Origin: Gemmatimonadota bacterium
GTDB lineage: Bacteria; Gemmatimonadota; Gemmatimonadetes; Gemmatimonadales; GWC2-71-9
Direction: 5' to 3'
NCBI GenBank assembly: GCA_046728135.1
Contig: JBKPDZ010000016.1
Span: 6,822-70,821, forward strand
Length of the DNA: 64,000 nucleotides
The notes beneath the pieces are model-generated. The model was not told the DNA's origin, made no database searches, and saw only the letters and a program-made list of their open reading frames with translations. Positions 1 through 37,349 of the stretch are shown one piece after another; within the stretch, counting starts at the first letter, position 1, and each line of letters begins with the position of its first letter. The translations under genes and the position numbers were made by a program.

Positions 1-256
1 CCTCGATCAAATTGAAGCCGCCCAGCACCTCCTTGGCCTCGCTAAACGGACCATCGGTGACTTTCGTGCGTCCGTTGCGGATCCGCACCGACTTCGCCCG
101 TTCCGCACCCTCGAGCATTTGAGACTCGATGAGCCGTCCATCCTGGTGGAGCTCGTCGGCGTGCGCGAGACAGTCCCGCATCATGCCATCCGTCTCGGTC
201 TGTGGCAGCGCGTCGTACAATTTCGGATCGTTGTAAATCACGAGTAAGAATTTCAC
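1..256 (-). CDS. YCII-related (DGPF) domain protein, partial (C-terminus runs off the window start)
   Basis: Own minus-strand translation from GTG at 256 gives VKFLLVIYNDPKLYDALPQTETDGMM...VTDGPFSEAKEVLGGFNLIE, which carries the DGPF..K..LGGF signature of the YCII family. GTGA overlap with the stop of the gnd-like gene. Absent from the ORF track because it has no stop in the window. Confidence 0.75.
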   Translation of the reverse strand, partial: MKFLLVIYNDPKLYDALPQTETDGMMRDCLAHADELHQDGRLIESQMLEGAERAKSVRIRNGRTKVTDGPFSEAKEVLGGFNLIE

Positions 257-1149
257 GCAGGCTCCTTGATCGCATGTCCACCAAACTCATGCCGCAGTGC
301 GGCGATCAATTTGGCACCGAACGACTCCTCCTGGCGCGACCTGAGTCGCGCGAGCAGCGACAACGTGATGACGGGCGCGGGCACGTCCAGACGCATCGCC
401 TCTTCGATCGTCCAACGTCCTTCGCCGGAGTCCTCGACGTACCCCCGAACCCCGGACAGCCGGCCGTCGCGCGCCAGCGCTCGCTCGGCGAGCTCGTTCA
501 GCCAGGAGCGCACGACGCTCCCGTGGTTCCAGAGCTTGGCGATCTGCCGCAGATCGAACTTGAAATCTTGCGAAGCATGCAGAATCTCATACCCCTCCGC
601 ATACGCTTGGAGCATGCCGTACTCGATCCCGTTGTGCACCATCTTCACATAATGCCCGGCTCCCGGAGGGCCGACGTGCGCGTAGCCTTCAGGCGCCGCC
701 AGCGTCCGAAAAATCGGCTCGCAATGCCGGAACGCCGCCGGCGAGGCGCCGACCATGAGACAATACCCGATCTCGAGGCCCCAGACACCGCCGCTCGTGC
801 CGACGTCGATGAACTCGATTCCTGTGGTCTGCAGCGCCTCGGCGCGGCGCAGCGAGTCGTGGAAATTCGAGTTGCCCCCGTCGATGACGATGTCGCCGCG
901 GGTGAGTTGCGGGGCGAGCTGCGCGATTGTGGCGTCAACCGGCGCGCCGGCAGGCAGCATCAGCCAGACCACGCGCCGGGGCGTTAGCTGCCGCGCGACA
1001 TCGGCTACGTCCGCTGCCTTCCGGACACCGGTCTGCCCCTTCACCGCCTCGGCGTTGTGGTCGTACACGATCAGCTCGTGGCCGCCCTGAATCAGCCGCC
1101 GTACCATGTTCCCGCCCATCCGACCCAATCCGATCATCGCCAATTGCAT
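253..1149 (-). CDS. gnd: 6-phosphogluconate dehydrogenase, decarboxylating, short (~300 aa) type
   Basis: ORF 253..1233 trimmed to the internal ATG (MQLAMIGLGRMGGNMVRRLIQGGHELIVYD), a Rossmann GxGxxG N-terminus. Also ...GHYVKMVHNGIEYGMLQAYAEG, typical of 6PGDH. Divergent from gntK. Confidence 0.85.
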   Translation of the reverse strand: MQLAMIGLGRMGGNMVRRLIQGGHELIVYDHNAEAVKGQTGVRKAADVADVARQLTPRRVVWLMLPAGAPVDATIAQLAPQLTRGDIVIDGGNSNFHDSLRRAEALQTTGIEFIDVGTSGGVWGLEIGYCLMVGASPAAFRHCEPIFRTLAAPEGYAHVGPPGAGHYVKMVHNGIEYGMLQAYAEGYEILHASQDFKFDLRQIAKLWNHGSVVRSWLNELAERALARDGRLSGVRGYVEDSGEGRWTIEEAMRLDVPAPVITLSLLARLRSRQEESFGAKLIAALRHEFGGHAIKEPA

Positions 1150-33103: not shown

Positions 33104-34183
33104 TTACAAACGCAGCGCCTCGCGCGCGACCTGCTCGGCCATCTGGGCAACCGCGGAACTGTCTAACATCCGCCCGTCGCCCTCCCCGCCCACGATATGA
33201 AGGCCGATCACTCCTTCAACCCGTCCGGCCACCACGGCGACCTTCTTCCTGGCCGCTTGCGCGCGGCGCACGACTTCGCCCGGAGCTTTTCCCACCAGTG
33301 ATGTCTTATCGAAAACCCCCTCGGCGGTGATGACCAGGTCGGCCTTTGCCAAGGCCGCGTCGAACCCGGCGCGTTCCAGCACCCATTCCGCGCCAGCGTT
33401 CAATTCCGCTTTTGCAAAGAACACCAGCCCCGCGCCGAGTCCGCCGGCGGCCCCGCCCATCGGCATCGTCCCAAGGTCGGGCCGGCCAGCCTGCGCCCAG
33501 AGCTCCGAGAGCCGCGTGAGACCGGCGGCGAGGCGCGGGATCTCCTCGGGGCGAGCTCCCTTCTGGGGCCCAAAAACGGGTGCCGCGCCGTCTGGTCCGA
33601 GTAAGGGAGTCGCCACGTCAGCCAGCGCGACGACACGAGCGGCGAGTGACCAGCCCGATCCGAACGACGCGAGCTCCTCGAGCGACCCCCCACCGTCCGG
33701 CAGCGGTCGGCCCGCGGCGTTCTCAAACGTCCAGCCGAAGCCGCGCGCCGCGCCAGTTCCGCCGTCGACGGTCGCGGTTCCTCCGAGGCCCACGACGATC
33801 GTCTTGGCACCACGATCCGCGGCGGTCCAGATCAACTCACCCACGCCGCGCGTGGTCGTGCGCATCGGATCGCGGTCTTCGGGCTCGACCAGCGCGAGGC
33901 CGCACGCCGATGCGCTTTCGATGATGGCGGTTTCGCCGTCCATCCACCCCAGCTCCGCAGAGACGGAATCACCGATTGGGCCCGTCACCTGCAGCCGCTC
34001 GCGCAATGCGCCGGCCGGGAGGACGACATCGAGTAGCCCGTTGCCCCCGTCGGCGACTGGACACTCGAGCACCGTCGCGTCCGGGACGGCGCGGCGCACG
34101 CCTGCCGCGAGTGCTGCGGCTACCTGCCGTGGGCCGAGTGTGCCTTTGAAGGCGGCAGGAGCCACGAGGACCACGAGTGCCAT
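33104..34183 (-). CDS. glxK: glycerate kinase
   Basis: ORF trimmed to MALVVLVAPAAFKGTLGPRQVAAALAAG...CPVADGGNG. Also ...VITAEGVFDKTSLVGKAPG. Confidence 0.85.
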   Translation of the reverse strand: MALVVLVAPAAFKGTLGPRQVAAALAAGVRRAVPDATVLECPVADGGNGLLDVVLPAGALRERLQVTGPIGDSVSAELGWMDGETAIIESASACGLALVEPEDRDPMRTTTRGVGELIWTAADRGAKTIVVGLGGTATVDGGTGAARGFGWTFENAAGRPLPDGGGSLEELASFGSGWSLAARVVALADVATPLLGPDGAAPVFGPQKGARPEEIPRLAAGLTRLSELWAQAGRPDLGTMPMGGAAGGLGAGLVFFAKAELNAGAEWVLERAGFDAALAKADLVITAEGVFDKTSLVGKAPGEVVRRAQAARKKVAVVAGRVEGVIGLHIVGGEGDGRMLDSSAVAQMAEQVAREALRL

Positions 34184-34200
34184 GATGGTGGCAAGATAGT

Positions 34201-34234
34201 GAAAACGAGAAACCCCCTGAGTTTCCCCAGGGGG
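34201..34234 (-). terminator. intrinsic terminator-like hairpin 17 nt upstream of the glxK start
   Basis: Minus strand reads CCCCCTG-GGGAAACT-CAGGGGG followed by TTTCTCGTTTTC. Confidence 0.6.
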
Positions 34235-34324
34235 TGATCGCCTGCCGCACACCGTGCGCCCTAGAACCCGATGTGAGCGAAGCGAACAACTTTCTCGCTA
34301 ATCGGGCGGCGCAGCGTTCACTCT

Positions 34325-34404
34325 GGCAGCCGGGCTGTCTCGATGAGACCCCTAGCTTTGCGCCCCGCCGTCACCGGCGGTTTGCCCTTTTCGAGAGTTC
34401 TGCC
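34325..34404 (-). promoter_or_regulatory. candidate c-di-GMP-I (GEMM-I) riboswitch aptamer
   Basis: Minus strand reads GGCAGAACUCUCGAAAAGGGCAAACC-GCCG-GUGA-CGGC-GGGGCGCAAAGCUAGGGGUCUCAUCGAGACAGCCCGGCUGCC. The conserved GGGCAAACC, a GNRA-capped hairpin and the GGxCGCAAAGC block appear in the same order as in the V. cholerae Vc2 aptamer (recalled from memory). The closing helix is GGCAG/CUGCC. Confidence 0.6.
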
Positions 34405-34532
34405 GATTTTAGAAGCAAAAACGGTGCCTTGTTGTAAGCGCTGTCACAGCAACTGGGAGTCATGTGACCTAGGGAAAGTACTTAACTGTTTTCTGCACTG
34501 ATTACTGCAAGATGCGGCAAGAAAACCGTCAC

Positions 34533-34564
34533 GAGGAGACGCCGCAGACGCCACAGGCGCACAG
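34533..34564. repeat. left 32-nt inverted repeat flanking the four-helix-bundle gene
   Basis: The plus strand reads GAGGAGACGCCGCAGACGCCACAGGCGCACAG. The reverse complement of 35029-35060 reads GAGAAGACGCCCAGACGCCACAGACGCAGCAG. About 29 of 32 positions match, with two 1-nt indels. Confidence 0.85.
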
Positions 34565-34585: not shown

Positions 34586-34942
34586 CTAGGCAGCAGCGTT
34601 TGAGAGCTTCCGCAGCAATCCGTAGACCGTCCGCGCACATTCGTCGTGGGCTTTGACGACTTCATCCATTTCGCCCGGTTTGAAAATGCCGAGGTGTTGG
34701 ACGAGGTCGAGAACGGCCTCGACCTCGACCAACGAACCTCGCGCGACGTCTGTGAAGCGTCGGAATTCCTTGGGACCGCGGCGGCTGACTCCTTCGGCAA
34801 GGTTCAAGACGATGCTATTACAGGCACGACGCCACTGATCCGCCAGGTCCCGTTCGGTTTCAGGAAGTCGATTGATGAGGGGACGCGACAATACGGCAAG
34901 CCGTCGCGCATGTTGGTACGCCTTCAGGTCTCTGAAAATCAT
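34586..34942 (-). CDS. four-helix-bundle protein (23S rRNA intervening-sequence protein family)
   Basis: MIFRDLKAYQHARRLAVLSRPLINRLPETERDLADQWRRACNSIVLNLAEGVSRRGPKEFRRFTDVARGSLVEVEAVLDL is the typical family pattern (F.DL..WQ.A..L......P..E...L..Q..RA..SI..NIAEG... GS..E). Confidence 0.85.
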   Translation of the reverse strand: MIFRDLKAYQHARRLAVLSRPLINRLPETERDLADQWRRACNSIVLNLAEGVSRRGPKEFRRFTDVARGSLVEVEAVLDLVQHLGIFKPGEMDEVVKAHDECARTVYGLLRKLSNAAA

Positions 34943-35028: not shown

Positions 35029-35060
35029 CTGCTGCGTCTGTGGCGTCTGGGCGTCTTCTC
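35029..35060. repeat. right 32-nt inverted repeat flanking the four-helix-bundle gene
   Basis: See 34533-34564. Built of AGACGCC-type sub-repeats. Confidence 0.85.
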
Positions 35061-35073
35061 GGAACGGTGTACT

Positions 35074-36366
35074 CTATACCTCGATGATCTGATCCCGACG
35101 CGTCCCGACACTCACATATCGAACGGGTGCACCCGCCAGATCCTGCAGCCTGTCCACATACGCCCTAGCCGCCGGCGGAAGATCCGCAAGTCTCCGCACC
35201 TCCGTAAGCGGCTTCTGCCAGCCCGTCACCTTCTCGTAGATCGGTTCGACTCGCGCGATCGTCTCAACATCGGCCGGCATGCTGTCGATCACTTCTCCGT
35301 CCAGCCGATAGCCGACTCCGACCGGTATCTCCGCAAACGTGTCCAGGACATCCAGCTTCGTGACCGCGAGGCCCGTAAGTCCATTCACCCGAACAGCATA
35401 CCTGACCACGACCGCATCGAACCAGCCGCACCGCCTGGGCCTCCCTGTGGTGGCCCCAAACTCCCCTCCGAGTTCTCGAATCCGTCCGGCGACGGCTGGC
35501 TCGGCCTCCGTCGGCAGCGGTCCATTGCCGACTCGCGTCGTGTACGCCTTCACGACGCCGAGCACGGCATCGATCGCGGTCGGTCCGATGCCGACGCCGA
35601 CCGCGGCACCGCCGGCGGTCGTGTTGGACGACGTGACATAGGGATAGGTGCCATGATCGACGTCGAGCAGTGCCCCCTGGGCCCCCTCGAGCAGCACCGA
35701 TTCGCCGCGTTGCAAGGCCTCCCAGACCACGCGGCCCGCGTCCACGGCGAGCGGCAACAGCCGTGGGGCGAGACGCTCGAGGAGATGGACGTGCTCCTCT
35801 GCACTCGCCCGCTCGCCGCCCCCTGCCCCTGCCCCCAGCATTGCTAGCATCTGGTTCGCCGCATCCACGCGTGCTCGTACGACTTCCTGCGCTCGGGTGA
35901 GGTTGCGGAGATCGCCGACGCGGACGCCGCGCCGGCCGTACTTGTCTTCGTAGGTCGGGCCGATCCCCCGCCCCGTGGTGCCGATCTGCTCGCGTTTTTC
36001 CCGCGCCCGATCCAGCAGTTTGTGATACGGCAGCGTCAAATGCGCGCGATCAGAGATGTGCAGCTTGTGCTCCGTGCGCACGCCTCGCCGCTCGAGCGCG
36101 TCGAGCTCGGCGAACATCTGCTCGGGGTCGAGCACCACGCCGTTGCCGACCACGCACACCGCGCCCTGGAGGATTCCCGATGGGATCTGGTGCAGGACGA
36201 ACGACTTCCCCTCGCCCGTGTCCACCGTGTGGCCGGCGTTGGCGCCGCCCTGGTAGCGCACCACGAGATCCGCGCGCTCGGCGAGGACGTCGACGATCTT
36301 GCCTTTGCCCTCATCGCCCCATTGGGCGCCTACCACGACAACACACTGCGTCTTGGGTCCGAACAC
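35074..36366 (-). CDS. purA: adenylosuccinate synthetase
   Basis: VVVVGAQWGDEGKGKIVDVL...YQGGANAGHTV. The start is set at in-frame GTG 36366, preceded by GGGGAGAA. The longer ORF-track N-terminus runs through an upstream terminator hairpin. Confidence 0.95.
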   Translation of the reverse strand: MFGPKTQCVVVVGAQWGDEGKGKIVDVLAERADLVVRYQGGANAGHTVDTGEGKSFVLHQIPSGILQGAVCVVGNGVVLDPEQMFAELDALERRGVRTEHKLHISDRAHLTLPYHKLLDRAREKREQIGTTGRGIGPTYEDKYGRRGVRVGDLRNLTRAQEVVRARVDAANQMLAMLGAGAGGGERASAEEHVHLLERLAPRLLPLAVDAGRVVWEALQRGESVLLEGAQGALLDVDHGTYPYVTSSNTTAGGAAVGVGIGPTAIDAVLGVVKAYTTRVGNGPLPTEAEPAVAGRIRELGGEFGATTGRPRRCGWFDAVVVRYAVRVNGLTGLAVTKLDVLDTFAEIPVGVGYRLDGEVIDSMPADVETIARVEPIYEKVTGWQKPLTEVRRLADLPPAARAYVDRLQDLAGAPVRYVSVGTRRDQIIEV

Positions 36367-36385
36367 GCGCGATTCTCCCCATGGC

Positions 36386-36412
36386 AACAAAAAAGCCCCC
36401 GCCGGTGGGGGC
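36386..36412 (-). terminator. intrinsic terminator after the M28 peptidase gene
   Basis: Minus strand reads GCCCCC-ACCGGC-GGGGGC followed by TTTTTTGTT. Confidence 0.75.
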
Positions 36413-36452
36413 CCAAGTACCGGGGCCATGCCCCGGTATCCTCTGTGGGAAG

Positions 36453-37349
36453 CTATCCAGCGCGCAGGACGCGCGCCAGCCCCGCGGCAACGTGCGCCGC
36501 GCCATCGAGCCGCAGCCGCGCCGTCGAGTCCTGGGGCCGGTGCACCACTCGCATCGTGCGCCAGTTGCCCTTCATGATCGTGACACACTCCCTGGCAACA
36601 CGGCCCAGTGCCATGCCGTCCACGATGACGGGCAACCAGCGCCAGCTCCGCGCGTTCACGGCCTGGGCGAGCGCGACACCGAGGCGCCCAGGGCGATGCA
36701 CGAACGCGGTGGCTCGACCGCTGTCGTCGAGGCTGTCGAGGTTGATGACGCTGGATTGGGCGAACAGGTCGCCCCGCTCAACGGCCAGCGCACGTGCTCC
36801 CACGAGGCCGTACTCCTCCGCATCCGGAAAAATGACGCCGACCCGCGCTCGAGCGGCCAGCTGATCGATGGCCATAAAGATCGCGACGAGGGCACTCGCG
36901 TTATCGAGCGCGCCCGGCGAGTTGTCGTTCACCCGATTGAGCAGTGCGATGCCTGTTCCTGCGGCGAGCAACGCGAGTCCGAGCAGCGGCGCAAGCAGGA
37001 CCAGCAGCAATCCGACCAGTAGGGCGGCAAATCCCAGTAGCCGCAGCGCCATCGAGATTGGCTGACCCTTGGAATCGTAGTGTGCGACCAACCAGACGGG
37101 CGGTTGGGTGGTGGGGCGGTCGGGCGGTCGGCATGCGATGAGATTGGTCCCGCTGACAACACGTGGTGCGCCGAAAAGCGCACGCGCCGGCCGGCCACTG
37201 AAGACGTGCTGCTCCACAGTGAATCCGCGCGCGATCAGCTCGCGCTGCAGGATCTCACGAACTCGTTGATGATTGGGTGTGCCCACGAGCCGCGGAATTG
37301 CCAGCTCGCGGAACAGCACGGCGTAGTCAGTCACCGCGTACGAGCGCAC
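36453..37349 (-). CDS. M28-family metallopeptidase-like membrane protein
   Basis: WLVAHYDSKG, NSPGALDNASALV, and FPDAEEYGLVGA motifs with an inserted hydrophobic segment. GTG start. Confidence 0.65.
   Translation of the reverse strand: MRSYAVTDYAVLFRELAIPRLVGTPNHQRVREILQRELIARGFTVEQHVFSGRPARALFGAPRVVSGTNLIACRPPDRPTTQPPVWLVAHYDSKGQPISMALRLLGFAALLVGLLLVLLAPLLGLALLAAGTGIALLNRVNDNSPGALDNASALVAIFMAIDQLAARARVGVIFPDAEEYGLVGARALAVERGDLFAQSSVINLDSLDDSGRATAFVHRPGRLGVALAQAVNARSWRWLPVIVDGMALGRVARECVTIMKGNWRTMRVVHRPQDSTARLRLDGAAHVAAGLARVLRAG

Follow-up and report, generated by a model that had tools for sequence, protein, structure and literature searches.

Sigma54-dependent small RNAs (sRNAs) such as Qrr and GlmY/GlmZ are short terminated RNAs made from a -24/-12 promoter with upstream activator sites, and we know of none that carries a riboswitch aptamer. 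Aptamers placed on non-coding RNAs have been described in other systems. In Rli55/EutX of Listeria and Enterococcus, an adenosylcobalamin (AdoCbl) riboswitch occupies the 5' end of the RNA with the functional element downstream, and the B12 riboswitch terminates Rli55 before this element (PMC5449094). In the Vc2-associated sRNAs of V. cholerae and in Listeria SreA/SreB, the aptamer resides within a stable sRNA (bioRxiv 10.1101/617340; PMC5449094). The stretch analyzed here, 64,000 nucleotides (nt) from a Gemmatimonadota bacterium (assembly GCA_046728135.1, contig JBKPDZ010000016.1, positions 6,822 to 70,821; hereafter the window), carries on its minus strand an aptamer of the cyclic di-GMP (c-di-GMP) class I, followed by a conserved hairpin, SL3, and by an intrinsic terminator next to the glycerate kinase gene glxK. 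A sequence-only reading of this DNA had seen in it a candidate riboswitch whose terminator could gate glxK and possibly the ensuing glycyl-tRNA synthetase (GlyRS) gene. We favor, at somewhat better than even confidence, another assignment: positions 34520-34202(-) are probably an autonomous sRNA gene of soil Gemmatimonadales, with a sigma54-type promoter and a core that would be switched off by c-di-GMP.

The locus is best described as the riboswitch-gated sRNA theme played on an sRNA family not contained in Rfam. Like such RNAs, it possesses its own predicted promoter and a terminator, both independent of the flanking genes; their other hallmark, a ligand-dependent terminator ahead of the functional element, is absent from the window and is found only in a group of relatives (class B), in models in which the ligand is predicted to end transcription before the core, as B12 does for Rli55 (PMC5449094). 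The 5' aptamer on a non-coding RNA with a downstream functional element is also shared with Rli55/EutX, but the cassette differs by its ligand, c-di-GMP, by its sigma54-type promoter, by SL3, which is not an ANTAR-like dual hexaloop, and by the coexistence of aptamer-less versions in related species; furthermore, the window type is devoid of an internal terminator and seems to mask its hairpin intramolecularly. The aptamer of the Vc2-associated sRNAs is 3'-terminal and influences stability, whereas here it lies 5' of the sRNA core, and SreA/SreB are by-products of mRNA leaders, whereas the cassette has a dedicated core with its own terminator. Qrr and GlmY/GlmZ resemble it by the -24/-12 promoter with upstream candidate activator sites and by the short terminated RNA, but exhibit no sequence or Rfam similarity to SL3. 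Compared with the Vc2-type riboswitches of RF01051, the three-helix junction, the GNRA loop on helix P2 and the equivalents of G20/A47/C92 and C44:G83 are alike, while the window aptamer forms the 5' domain of a predicted terminated RNA of ~200 nt instead of an mRNA 5' untranslated region, and it is followed by a conserved hairpin known also from aptamer-free units.

Architecture of the cassette

The cassette spans ~200 nt, is conserved in Gemmatimonadales and comprises, in this order, a putative sigma54-type promoter, the aptamer, a linker, SL3 and the terminator (coordinates are those of the window and refer to its minus strand unless stated otherwise). The promoter motif GGCACCGTTTTTGC (GG-N10-GC, -24/-12; 34415-34428) is the sole match in the 64-kb window. 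Among the relatives described below, 136 of 138 distinct complete units contain GGCA[CT]-N5-TTG[CT] (consensus gGGCACcGTTCTTGC), 26-31 nt 5' of the aptamer segment GGGCAAACC or, where the aptamer is absent, 32-44 nt 5' of the hairpin core. The TGGCAC-N5-TTGC consensus (GG-N10-GC) thus stands at a fixed distance from the transcript, as taken here to characterize a sigma54 promoter, and the promoter is presumably sigma54-dependent. Transcription is predicted to start at ~34403, about 6 nt 5' of helix P1, and would yield the RNA of ~200 nt mentioned above. Further upstream, dyad-like TGCA/GCA repeats (TTGCCGCATCTTGCAGTAATCAGTGCAGAAAACAG, 34485-34520) are a candidate enhancer (upstream activating sequence) for a sigma54 activator; TGCA-containing repeats are kept at this position whatever the orientation of the cassette, and in distant relatives they become clear dyads, GCATAATGCA-N9-TGCATAATGCA. 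Between these repeats and the promoter motif, CCCTAGGTCAC (34464-34475) is conserved only in the clade in which the cassette is co-oriented with glxK. It shows partial complementarity to the SL3 apex (CUAGGG), and may be a bending site of the IHF type.

The linker downstream of the aptamer is ~30 nt long and variable, except for the conserved GCGCC, GCCCGA and GCGAGAAGGAG. It harbors a conserved switching sequence, GCGCCGCCCGA (34302-34312), with two alternative complementary partners, the aptamer core (GGGC, GGGGCGC) on one side and the 5' half and apex of SL3 (UCGGG...GGGCGC) on the other. SL3 itself (34237-34286) is a near-invariant 21-bp imperfect hairpin with the apex GGGUUCUAGGGCGC, as delineated by RNAalifold, and is presumed to be the functional core of the sRNA. 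This stretch of ~50 nt is invariant or almost so in 44 species, the loci of which were found through glxK. The terminator (34202-34235) had been correctly recognized as canonical and intrinsic: a terminator scan reports a GC-rich stem of 10 bp (34235-34212, 7 G-C pairs) that begins 85 nt past the aptamer, a GNRA loop GAAA, and a tail, UUUCUCGUUUUC, with an interrupted U-tract, UUUCUCGUUUU, which ends 17 nt short of the glxK ATG (34183), also as claimed. The terminator loop (34223-34226) is of the GNRA type, GAAA or GCAA, in nearly all units, and the SL3 apex UUCUA (34262-34269) resembles a T-loop by the spacing of its U...A reverse-Hoogsteen positions; both loops could mediate tertiary contacts or bind protein.

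The pairing of SL3 and of the terminator is supported by comparison. In 49 diverse cores, 99.4% of the aligned cells are paired, as compared with 36-52% with slid partners, and 10 of 26 pairs display a compensatory change, against 2.8 +/- 1.3 in shuffled alignments (none of 500 as high); in the terminator stem alone, 4 of 8 pairs do so. Many of the changes are C-G to U-G, which is compatible solely with the sense strand set by the promoter and the terminator. The 5' flank of SL3, CGAGAAA (34291-34297), pairs in the minimum free energy (MFE) fold with UUUCUCG in the terminator tail (34211-34205). These two strands covary from unit to unit (CGAGAA/UUCUCG, AGAGA/UCUCU, AGCA/UGCU, GGCAC/GUGCU), the own pairs reaching a mean of -7.15 kcal against -5.71 +/- 0.19 kcal for permuted ones (0/300). 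Comparison of SL3 with Rfam returned no family, only noise (E>2).

The same conservation pattern bears on whether the stretch from aptamer to terminator could code for a small protein controlled by the riboswitch. An AAGGAG precedes SL3 in most orthologues, and bioRxiv 10.64898/2026.06.10.731418 offers a precedent in the small proteins regulated by c-di-GMP riboswitches in C. difficile. We consider this hardly credible, as most orthologues lack an ATG, GTG or TTG at a usable distance past AAGGAG, no start codon is conserved, the frame shared by a GTG at 34252 and glxK exists in the window only, all three codon positions are conserved, and the changes that occur compensate for RNA pairing.

Distribution and orientation

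A GlxK scan of species-representative genomes yielded 44 orthologous loci (GlxK 67-93% identical), and the element is present in 43 of them, with 81-96% nucleotide identity from the aptamer through the terminator. In 30 of these 43 species representatives, the cassette is co-oriented with glxK, while in 13 it is divergent, the aptamer being on the opposite strand. Direct reading of the loci L001 and L025 reveals that the whole block, i.e. ~110 nt 5' of the aptamer, aptamer, linker, hairpin and terminator, is inverted as one unit between the same neighbors, the terminator of L025 abutting the purA stop codon. In divergent loci generally, the terminator lies 2-60 nt from the stop codon of the convergent gene, which is either purA or the gene of a 23S-rRNA-IVS protein, and the synteny purA-(IVS gene)-block-glxK-glyS is otherwise maintained.

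A metagenome scan with the 16-mer GGGTTCTAGGGCGCAC yielded 120 loci, 8 of which are chance matches, and nearly all of the others adjoin glxK; the invariance of the 16-mer is built into the metagenome set by the way it was collected, but is not built into the 44 loci derived from glxK. Genomes and metagenomes combined amount to 144 distinct units, of which 131 have a known orientation (58 co-oriented, 73 divergent). An aptamer without an internal terminator, as in the window, is found in 106 units (58 co-oriented, 42 divergent, 6 of unknown orientation). The co-oriented arrangement is confined to a sub-clade with a GlxK at least 82% identical to that of the window, in which the cassette shares the strand of glxK and precedes it by 17-60 nt.

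Not every unit contains the aptamer. The sigma54 motif, SL3 and the terminator occur without an aptamer in 22 of the 144 units, all divergent from glxK, and Rfam scans of three of these (L089, L091 and L095) gave no match. Since SL3 and the terminator are also found behind the same promoter without an aptamer, they would represent the ancestral functional sRNA core, and the comparison shows the aptamer as a 5' add-on to it. In L190 (glxK 80% identical), the promoter is followed by GGCGCCCUGGAGAGAAAAG and then by SL3, although its relatives are otherwise aptamer-bearing; because this aptamer-less unit stands amid fairly close relatives, the aptamer appears to be a module that is gained or lost, with L190 as a case of recent loss or gain. 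Another 9 units, all divergent, form class B, with an aptamer and, between it and SL3, a hairpin followed by U5-6 (CCCCACGC...GCGCGGGGUUUUUU), termed T1.

Two units depart from these types. L152, a unit upstream of glxK, has neither the sigma54 motif nor the aptamer's 5' half; right behind the purA stop codon come the 3' half of P3, the linker, SL3 and the terminator, and the unit represents a deletion variant or else a misassembly. In the locus with the most distant GlxK (L039, 67% identical), neither BLAST nor a covariance model detected the cassette, and on the strand opposite glxK (2750-2900) a sigma54-like motif, GGCACTCAGCTTGC, precedes a diverged SL3-like hairpin (CUGACAUCGAUGCUGGGCGCGCGAUGG). 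The SL3 family may thus extend beyond the current loci.

In a neighbor-joining tree of glxK+glyS, built without support values, divergent loci are basal and also form a clade nested among co-oriented ones, which implies 2-3 switches of orientation. These switches between close relatives, together with the precise boundaries of the block, could suggest a phase-variable element inverted by a site-specific recombinase. We hold this to be very unlikely, as no consistent flanking inverted repeats were found in the four loci checked, and a single orientation in each assembly is what rare inversions over evolutionary time would give. The sole locus with two facing copies, L182 (1-1000; aptamers at 5-89 (+) and 914-998 (-) across a truncated 5' end of glxK), was ruled out as a biological inversion: its arms differ in sequence, revealing a fold-back chimeric contig of two strains.

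The strict synteny of the units with glxK and purA would be in keeping with a local output. According to this alternative, to which we assign a small but appreciable chance, the c-di-GMP sensor is genuine and SL3 acts locally, through protein binding or RNA stability or processing, or the ligand controls the stability of the RNA. The pairing of the SL3 5' flank with the 3' tail would bury the U-tail, unlike in typical Hfq-dependent sRNAs, and ligand binding by Vc2 stabilizes adjacent sRNAs (bioRxiv 10.1101/617340). Such a local role, a minor possibility to our mind although none of the present results speaks against it, departs from the autonomous sRNA that we favor at the output step only, where the latter would act in trans.

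The aptamer domain

The minus-strand sequence quoted in the sequence-only reading for 34404-34325 is present exactly as written, and its assignment to the class-I c-di-GMP (GEMM-I) aptamers holds. An Rfam 15 scan of the whole window at gathering thresholds (59 bits for RF03167, 35 bits for RF01051) reports a full-length match with RF03167, c-di-GMP-I-GGC, at 34395-34321 (68.8 bits, E 3.5e-14). This aptamer is the sole Rfam match in the window, one more family of the same clan reaching its own gathering score at the same site, below RF03167. Among the 39 orthologues with an aptamer match, RF03167 is the top model in 24 (59.4-68.5 bits) and RF01051 in 15 (48.8-61.8 bits), as orthologues that fall below the RF03167 cut-off get called RF01051 (see the alignment for orthologue L020). 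The proposal that RF01051 would score above its threshold was hence borne out by these orthologues, while in the window the top model is RF03167 instead.

Two variant binding sites were considered and rejected. The name of the GGC variant is taken here to denote positions 20, 47 and 92 (contact positions are given in Vc2 numbering), i.e. a G at the A47 equivalent. The consensus lines agree with this, RF03167 reading ACGCGAAgC, with a G at model position 37, and RF01051 reading ACGCAAAgC. In the window, as in each of the 96 distinct relatives, the position is nevertheless an A (CGCAAAGC), which rules out the GGC-variant site despite the 68.8-bit score; this score mirrors overall sequence similarity rather than a variant binding site. 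Models of the RF03167 and RF01051 types are known to match the same RNAs (PMC9943018). The comparison with the 3'3'-cyclic GMP-AMP riboswitch GEMM-Ib, which had been suggested as a check, also turned out negative. Presumably, this variant carries an A instead of a G at position 20, and the position-20 G, in AGGGCAAACC, is invariant across the relatives.

The residues G20, A47 and C92 contact c-di-GMP (PMC4744006, PMC11218506). Their equivalents, in AGGGCAAACC, CGCAAAGC and GCUGCC, are kept in the window, in the 44 species and in 96/96 distinct relatives; the aptamer is therefore assigned to the ordinary, canonical c-di-GMP-I class and is predicted to bind c-di-GMP. The aptamer (34321-34397) forms a three-helix junction, with P1, CUCU(G)/(C)AGAG, pairing 34397-34394 with 34324-34321, with P2 capped by a GNRA loop, and then with P3. 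The GNRA-capped hairpin was rightly identified, the P2 loop being GUGA in the window and GUGA or GCGA in relatives, and the interhelical C44:G83 equivalents (C in GGGGCGC, G in GACAGCC) occur throughout. In a model-guided alignment of the 96 distinct relatives, 97% of the cells are paired in the aptamer helices, as compared with 33-48% with slid partners. Compensatory changes affect 7 pairs, with P1, P2 and P3 all represented; this covariation, which had been asked of the helices, barely exceeds that of shuffles, given a narrow clade and a highly conserved aptamer. It does not include the closing helix GGCAG/CUGCC proposed beforehand, the two outer pairs of which are broken in 26-27 of the 44 orthologues, without any excess over shuffled controls. 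A local hairpin GGCG...CGCC just 3' of P1, formed in some orthologues and absent from the window and from others, was dropped.

Folding models and the predicted switch

The aptamer would render the SL3 core responsive to c-di-GMP, and the models, in which a closed-off (locked) aptamer serves as a proxy for the ligand-bound state, suggest two ways of doing so. In class B, partition-function models of the nascent RNA put the probability of T1 at 0.86-1.0 for a locked aptamer and, in 9 of 11 sequences, at 0-0.46 for a free one. T1 falls with the free aptamer because the P1 5' strand and junction J1/2 (CUCUGUUCAGGGC) then pair with the T1 5' arm. In models, this is a classic OFF design: ligand binding would let T1 form before SL3, leaving the core untranscribed.

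The window type has no U-tract hairpin in its linker. In the free MFE fold of the window RNA (34403-34203, -91.6 kcal/mol), the linker segment GCGCCGCCC pairs with the aptamer core GGGC and GGGGCGC, and SL3 and the terminator are intact. When the aptamer is enforced (-86.5 kcal/mol), the partner of the linker becomes UCGGG...GGGCGC of SL3; the SL3 hairpin is lost while the terminator is kept. The cost of ~5 kcal is well inside the ligand-binding energies of GEMM-I aptamers. In the 43 orthologues modeled, P(SL3) falls from 0.39 free to 0.15 locked and P(linker:SL3) rises from 0.59 free to 0.82 locked, and P(SL3) follows P(linker:aptamer core) almost sequence by sequence; the switching effect has the expected sign in 21 of the 43. 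A comparison of MFE folds between free and downstream-only RNAs had not given consistent calls, the two folds being almost equal in energy, and is superseded by these partition-function estimates. In L031 and L032, a change of UCGGG to UUGGG in SL3 is matched by a G-to-A change in the 3' strand of SL3 and, as we read the alignment, by a change of CCCGA to CCCA in the linker, a double match that fits two alternative partners. We thus propose that, in the window type, c-di-GMP would lock the aptamer and free the linker GCGCC-GCCCGA, which would then mask and unfold SL3. High c-di-GMP would turn the sRNA off in both designs.

The terminator does not take part in this exchange, with P(terminator) at ~0.98 in both aptamer states across the same 43 orthologues. 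This result weighs on the view that the locus is a cis transcriptional riboswitch, in which c-di-GMP sets the passage of the terminator (34235-34202) into glxK, glyQS and downstream genes. Co-orientation in the window and in 58 distinct units, with a terminator ending 17-60 nt before the glxK start, argues for it, and so does the interrupted U-tract, which makes some read-through likely. We nevertheless regard it as unlikely. The 73 units that point away from glxK, their terminator then abutting the 3' end of purA or of the IVS gene, have no downstream gene to control (73/131), aptamer-less units retain the same hairpin and terminator, and no antiterminator uses the arms of the terminator; the AGGGG/CCCCU pairing put forward for this role is absent from MFE and ensemble models and exhibits no consistent covariation by eye. 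In addition, the 60 nt 5' of the terminator are far more conserved than usual expression platforms, and a -10-like motif precedes glxK in both orientations. Since conservation of the terminator depends neither on the presence of an aptamer nor on orientation, and since it is ligand-insensitive in models, it would be the sRNA's own, and the terminator beside glxK would mark the end of the sRNA rather than a ligand-controlled element. The earlier proposal that it serves as an expression platform gating glxK/glyQS is not sustained in view of blocks that are often inverted, aptamer-less copies, a state-insensitive terminator and a predicted promoter of its own, and it follows that second-messenger control of glycerate kinase and glycyl-tRNA synthetase, already deemed unusual in the sequence-only reading, finds no support in the comparative evidence.

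The same insensitivity applies to a portable, c-di-GMP-controlled promoter-attenuator with read-through as its output, sense to glxK in one orientation and, as an antisense-acting riboswitch, antisense to purA or the IVS-protein gene in the other. Such a device would agree with the terminators located 2-60 nt from a convergent stop codon in divergent loci and with the fact that c-di-GMP riboswitches have the strongest antisense tendency among riboswitch families (PMC9943018). We find it quite unlikely, as it also leaves the near-invariant SL3 and the aptamer-less promoter/SL3/terminator copies unexplained, and as conservation this strong is hard to square with unrelated outputs, two of them, in sister species.

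Genomic surroundings

The genes around the element in the window are all encoded on the minus strand, namely a purA open reading frame (ORF) (35074-36588), the 23S-rRNA-IVS protein gene (34586-34942), glxK (33104-34183), class-II GlyRS (33150-31726), next to glxK, and an amine oxidase. GlxK is assigned to the glycerate kinases by Pfam (PF02595 Gly_kinase, 1.4e-101), an exact-sequence lookup of it returned no record, and the gene is probably a neighbor rather than a target. Its conserved start is the ATG at 34183. The ORF list also contains a GTG-initiated ORF of 382 residues (34252 to 33104), in which glxK is prolonged upstream across the terminator and SL3, and gene callers taking this start would hide the RNA element. 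Outside the cassette, TATCTT (34193-34198) is a possible -10 of a promoter of glxK itself; within the 45 nt upstream of glxK, compared in ~130 loci, a TA(T/A)NTT-like motif is found 6-10 nt 5' of the glxK start in co-oriented and divergent loci alike, which hints at an own promoter and a leaderless or short-leader mRNA. In distant divergent loci (L089, L113, L123, L142 and others), the GCATAATGCA-N9-TGCATAATGCA dyads extend up to the predicted glxK start, where the start codons are uncertain, and activator sites at these dyads could influence glxK too.

The 23S-rRNA-IVS protein gene is found in about a third of the orthologous loci only. In the window, it is flanked by tandem arrays of 9 nt in opposite orientations, GTGGCGTCT x3.2 at 34537-34564(-) and GGCGTCTGGGCGTC at 35042-35055(+), and GGCGTCT arrays of a similar kind are located between the cassette and glxK in many relatives. 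These arrays may be insertion or recombination scars. A motif search of the window found no GGDEF match, and its EAL-pattern matches were only loose and non-specific.

Discussion

Several observations weigh against an autonomous, c-di-GMP-gated sRNA. The promoter, the start site and the RNA of ~200 nt are all predictions, and the motif search of the 64-kb window found no ORF with a GAFTGA (activator) motif or an RpoN box. Sites complementary to the SL3 apex are not enriched in the window (15 vs 9.4 expected), and none is convincing. The linker:SL3 fold prevails in both states in 18 of the 43 orthologues, which would then be already masked, and the effect is reversed in 4; the near-equal energies of the two folds count here too, and the thermodynamic models take no account of aptamer tertiary structure or kinetics. 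Lastly, the cassette adjoins glxK whatever its orientation, which could mean a local, cis-linked role rather than one in trans, and in the sub-clade of the window, where glxK starts 17 nt past the terminator, read-through must affect glxK to some degree.

We still favor the sRNA gene and, more tentatively, a possible history in which an uncatalogued sigma54-dependent sRNA family recruited a c-di-GMP-I aptamer, the window design refolding the functional domain of a trans-acting RNA. On that same tentative footing, three natural designs would coexist: the bare sRNA, the aptamer with an internal terminator, and the aptamer with an apex-masking linker. The aptamer-less and terminator-gated sister lineages provide natural controls for the mechanism.

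For the reading of such loci, passing the RF03167 gathering score is not in itself a sign of a variant binding site. Likewise, reading c-di-GMP riboswitches by the next gene can mislead, and this locus is a worked example: taken as a next-gene leader, it would suggest second-messenger control of glycerate kinase and of an essential tRNA synthetase, for which the comparison of relatives gives no support. If the sRNA assignment is true, it would be, to our knowledge, the first c-di-GMP-gated sRNA. It would then be a riboswitch acting on neither termination nor mRNA translation in the window type, coupling the second-messenger level directly to sRNA activity, and in these Gemmatimonadales a sigma54 activator and c-di-GMP, two regulatory layers, would be joined in one RNA.

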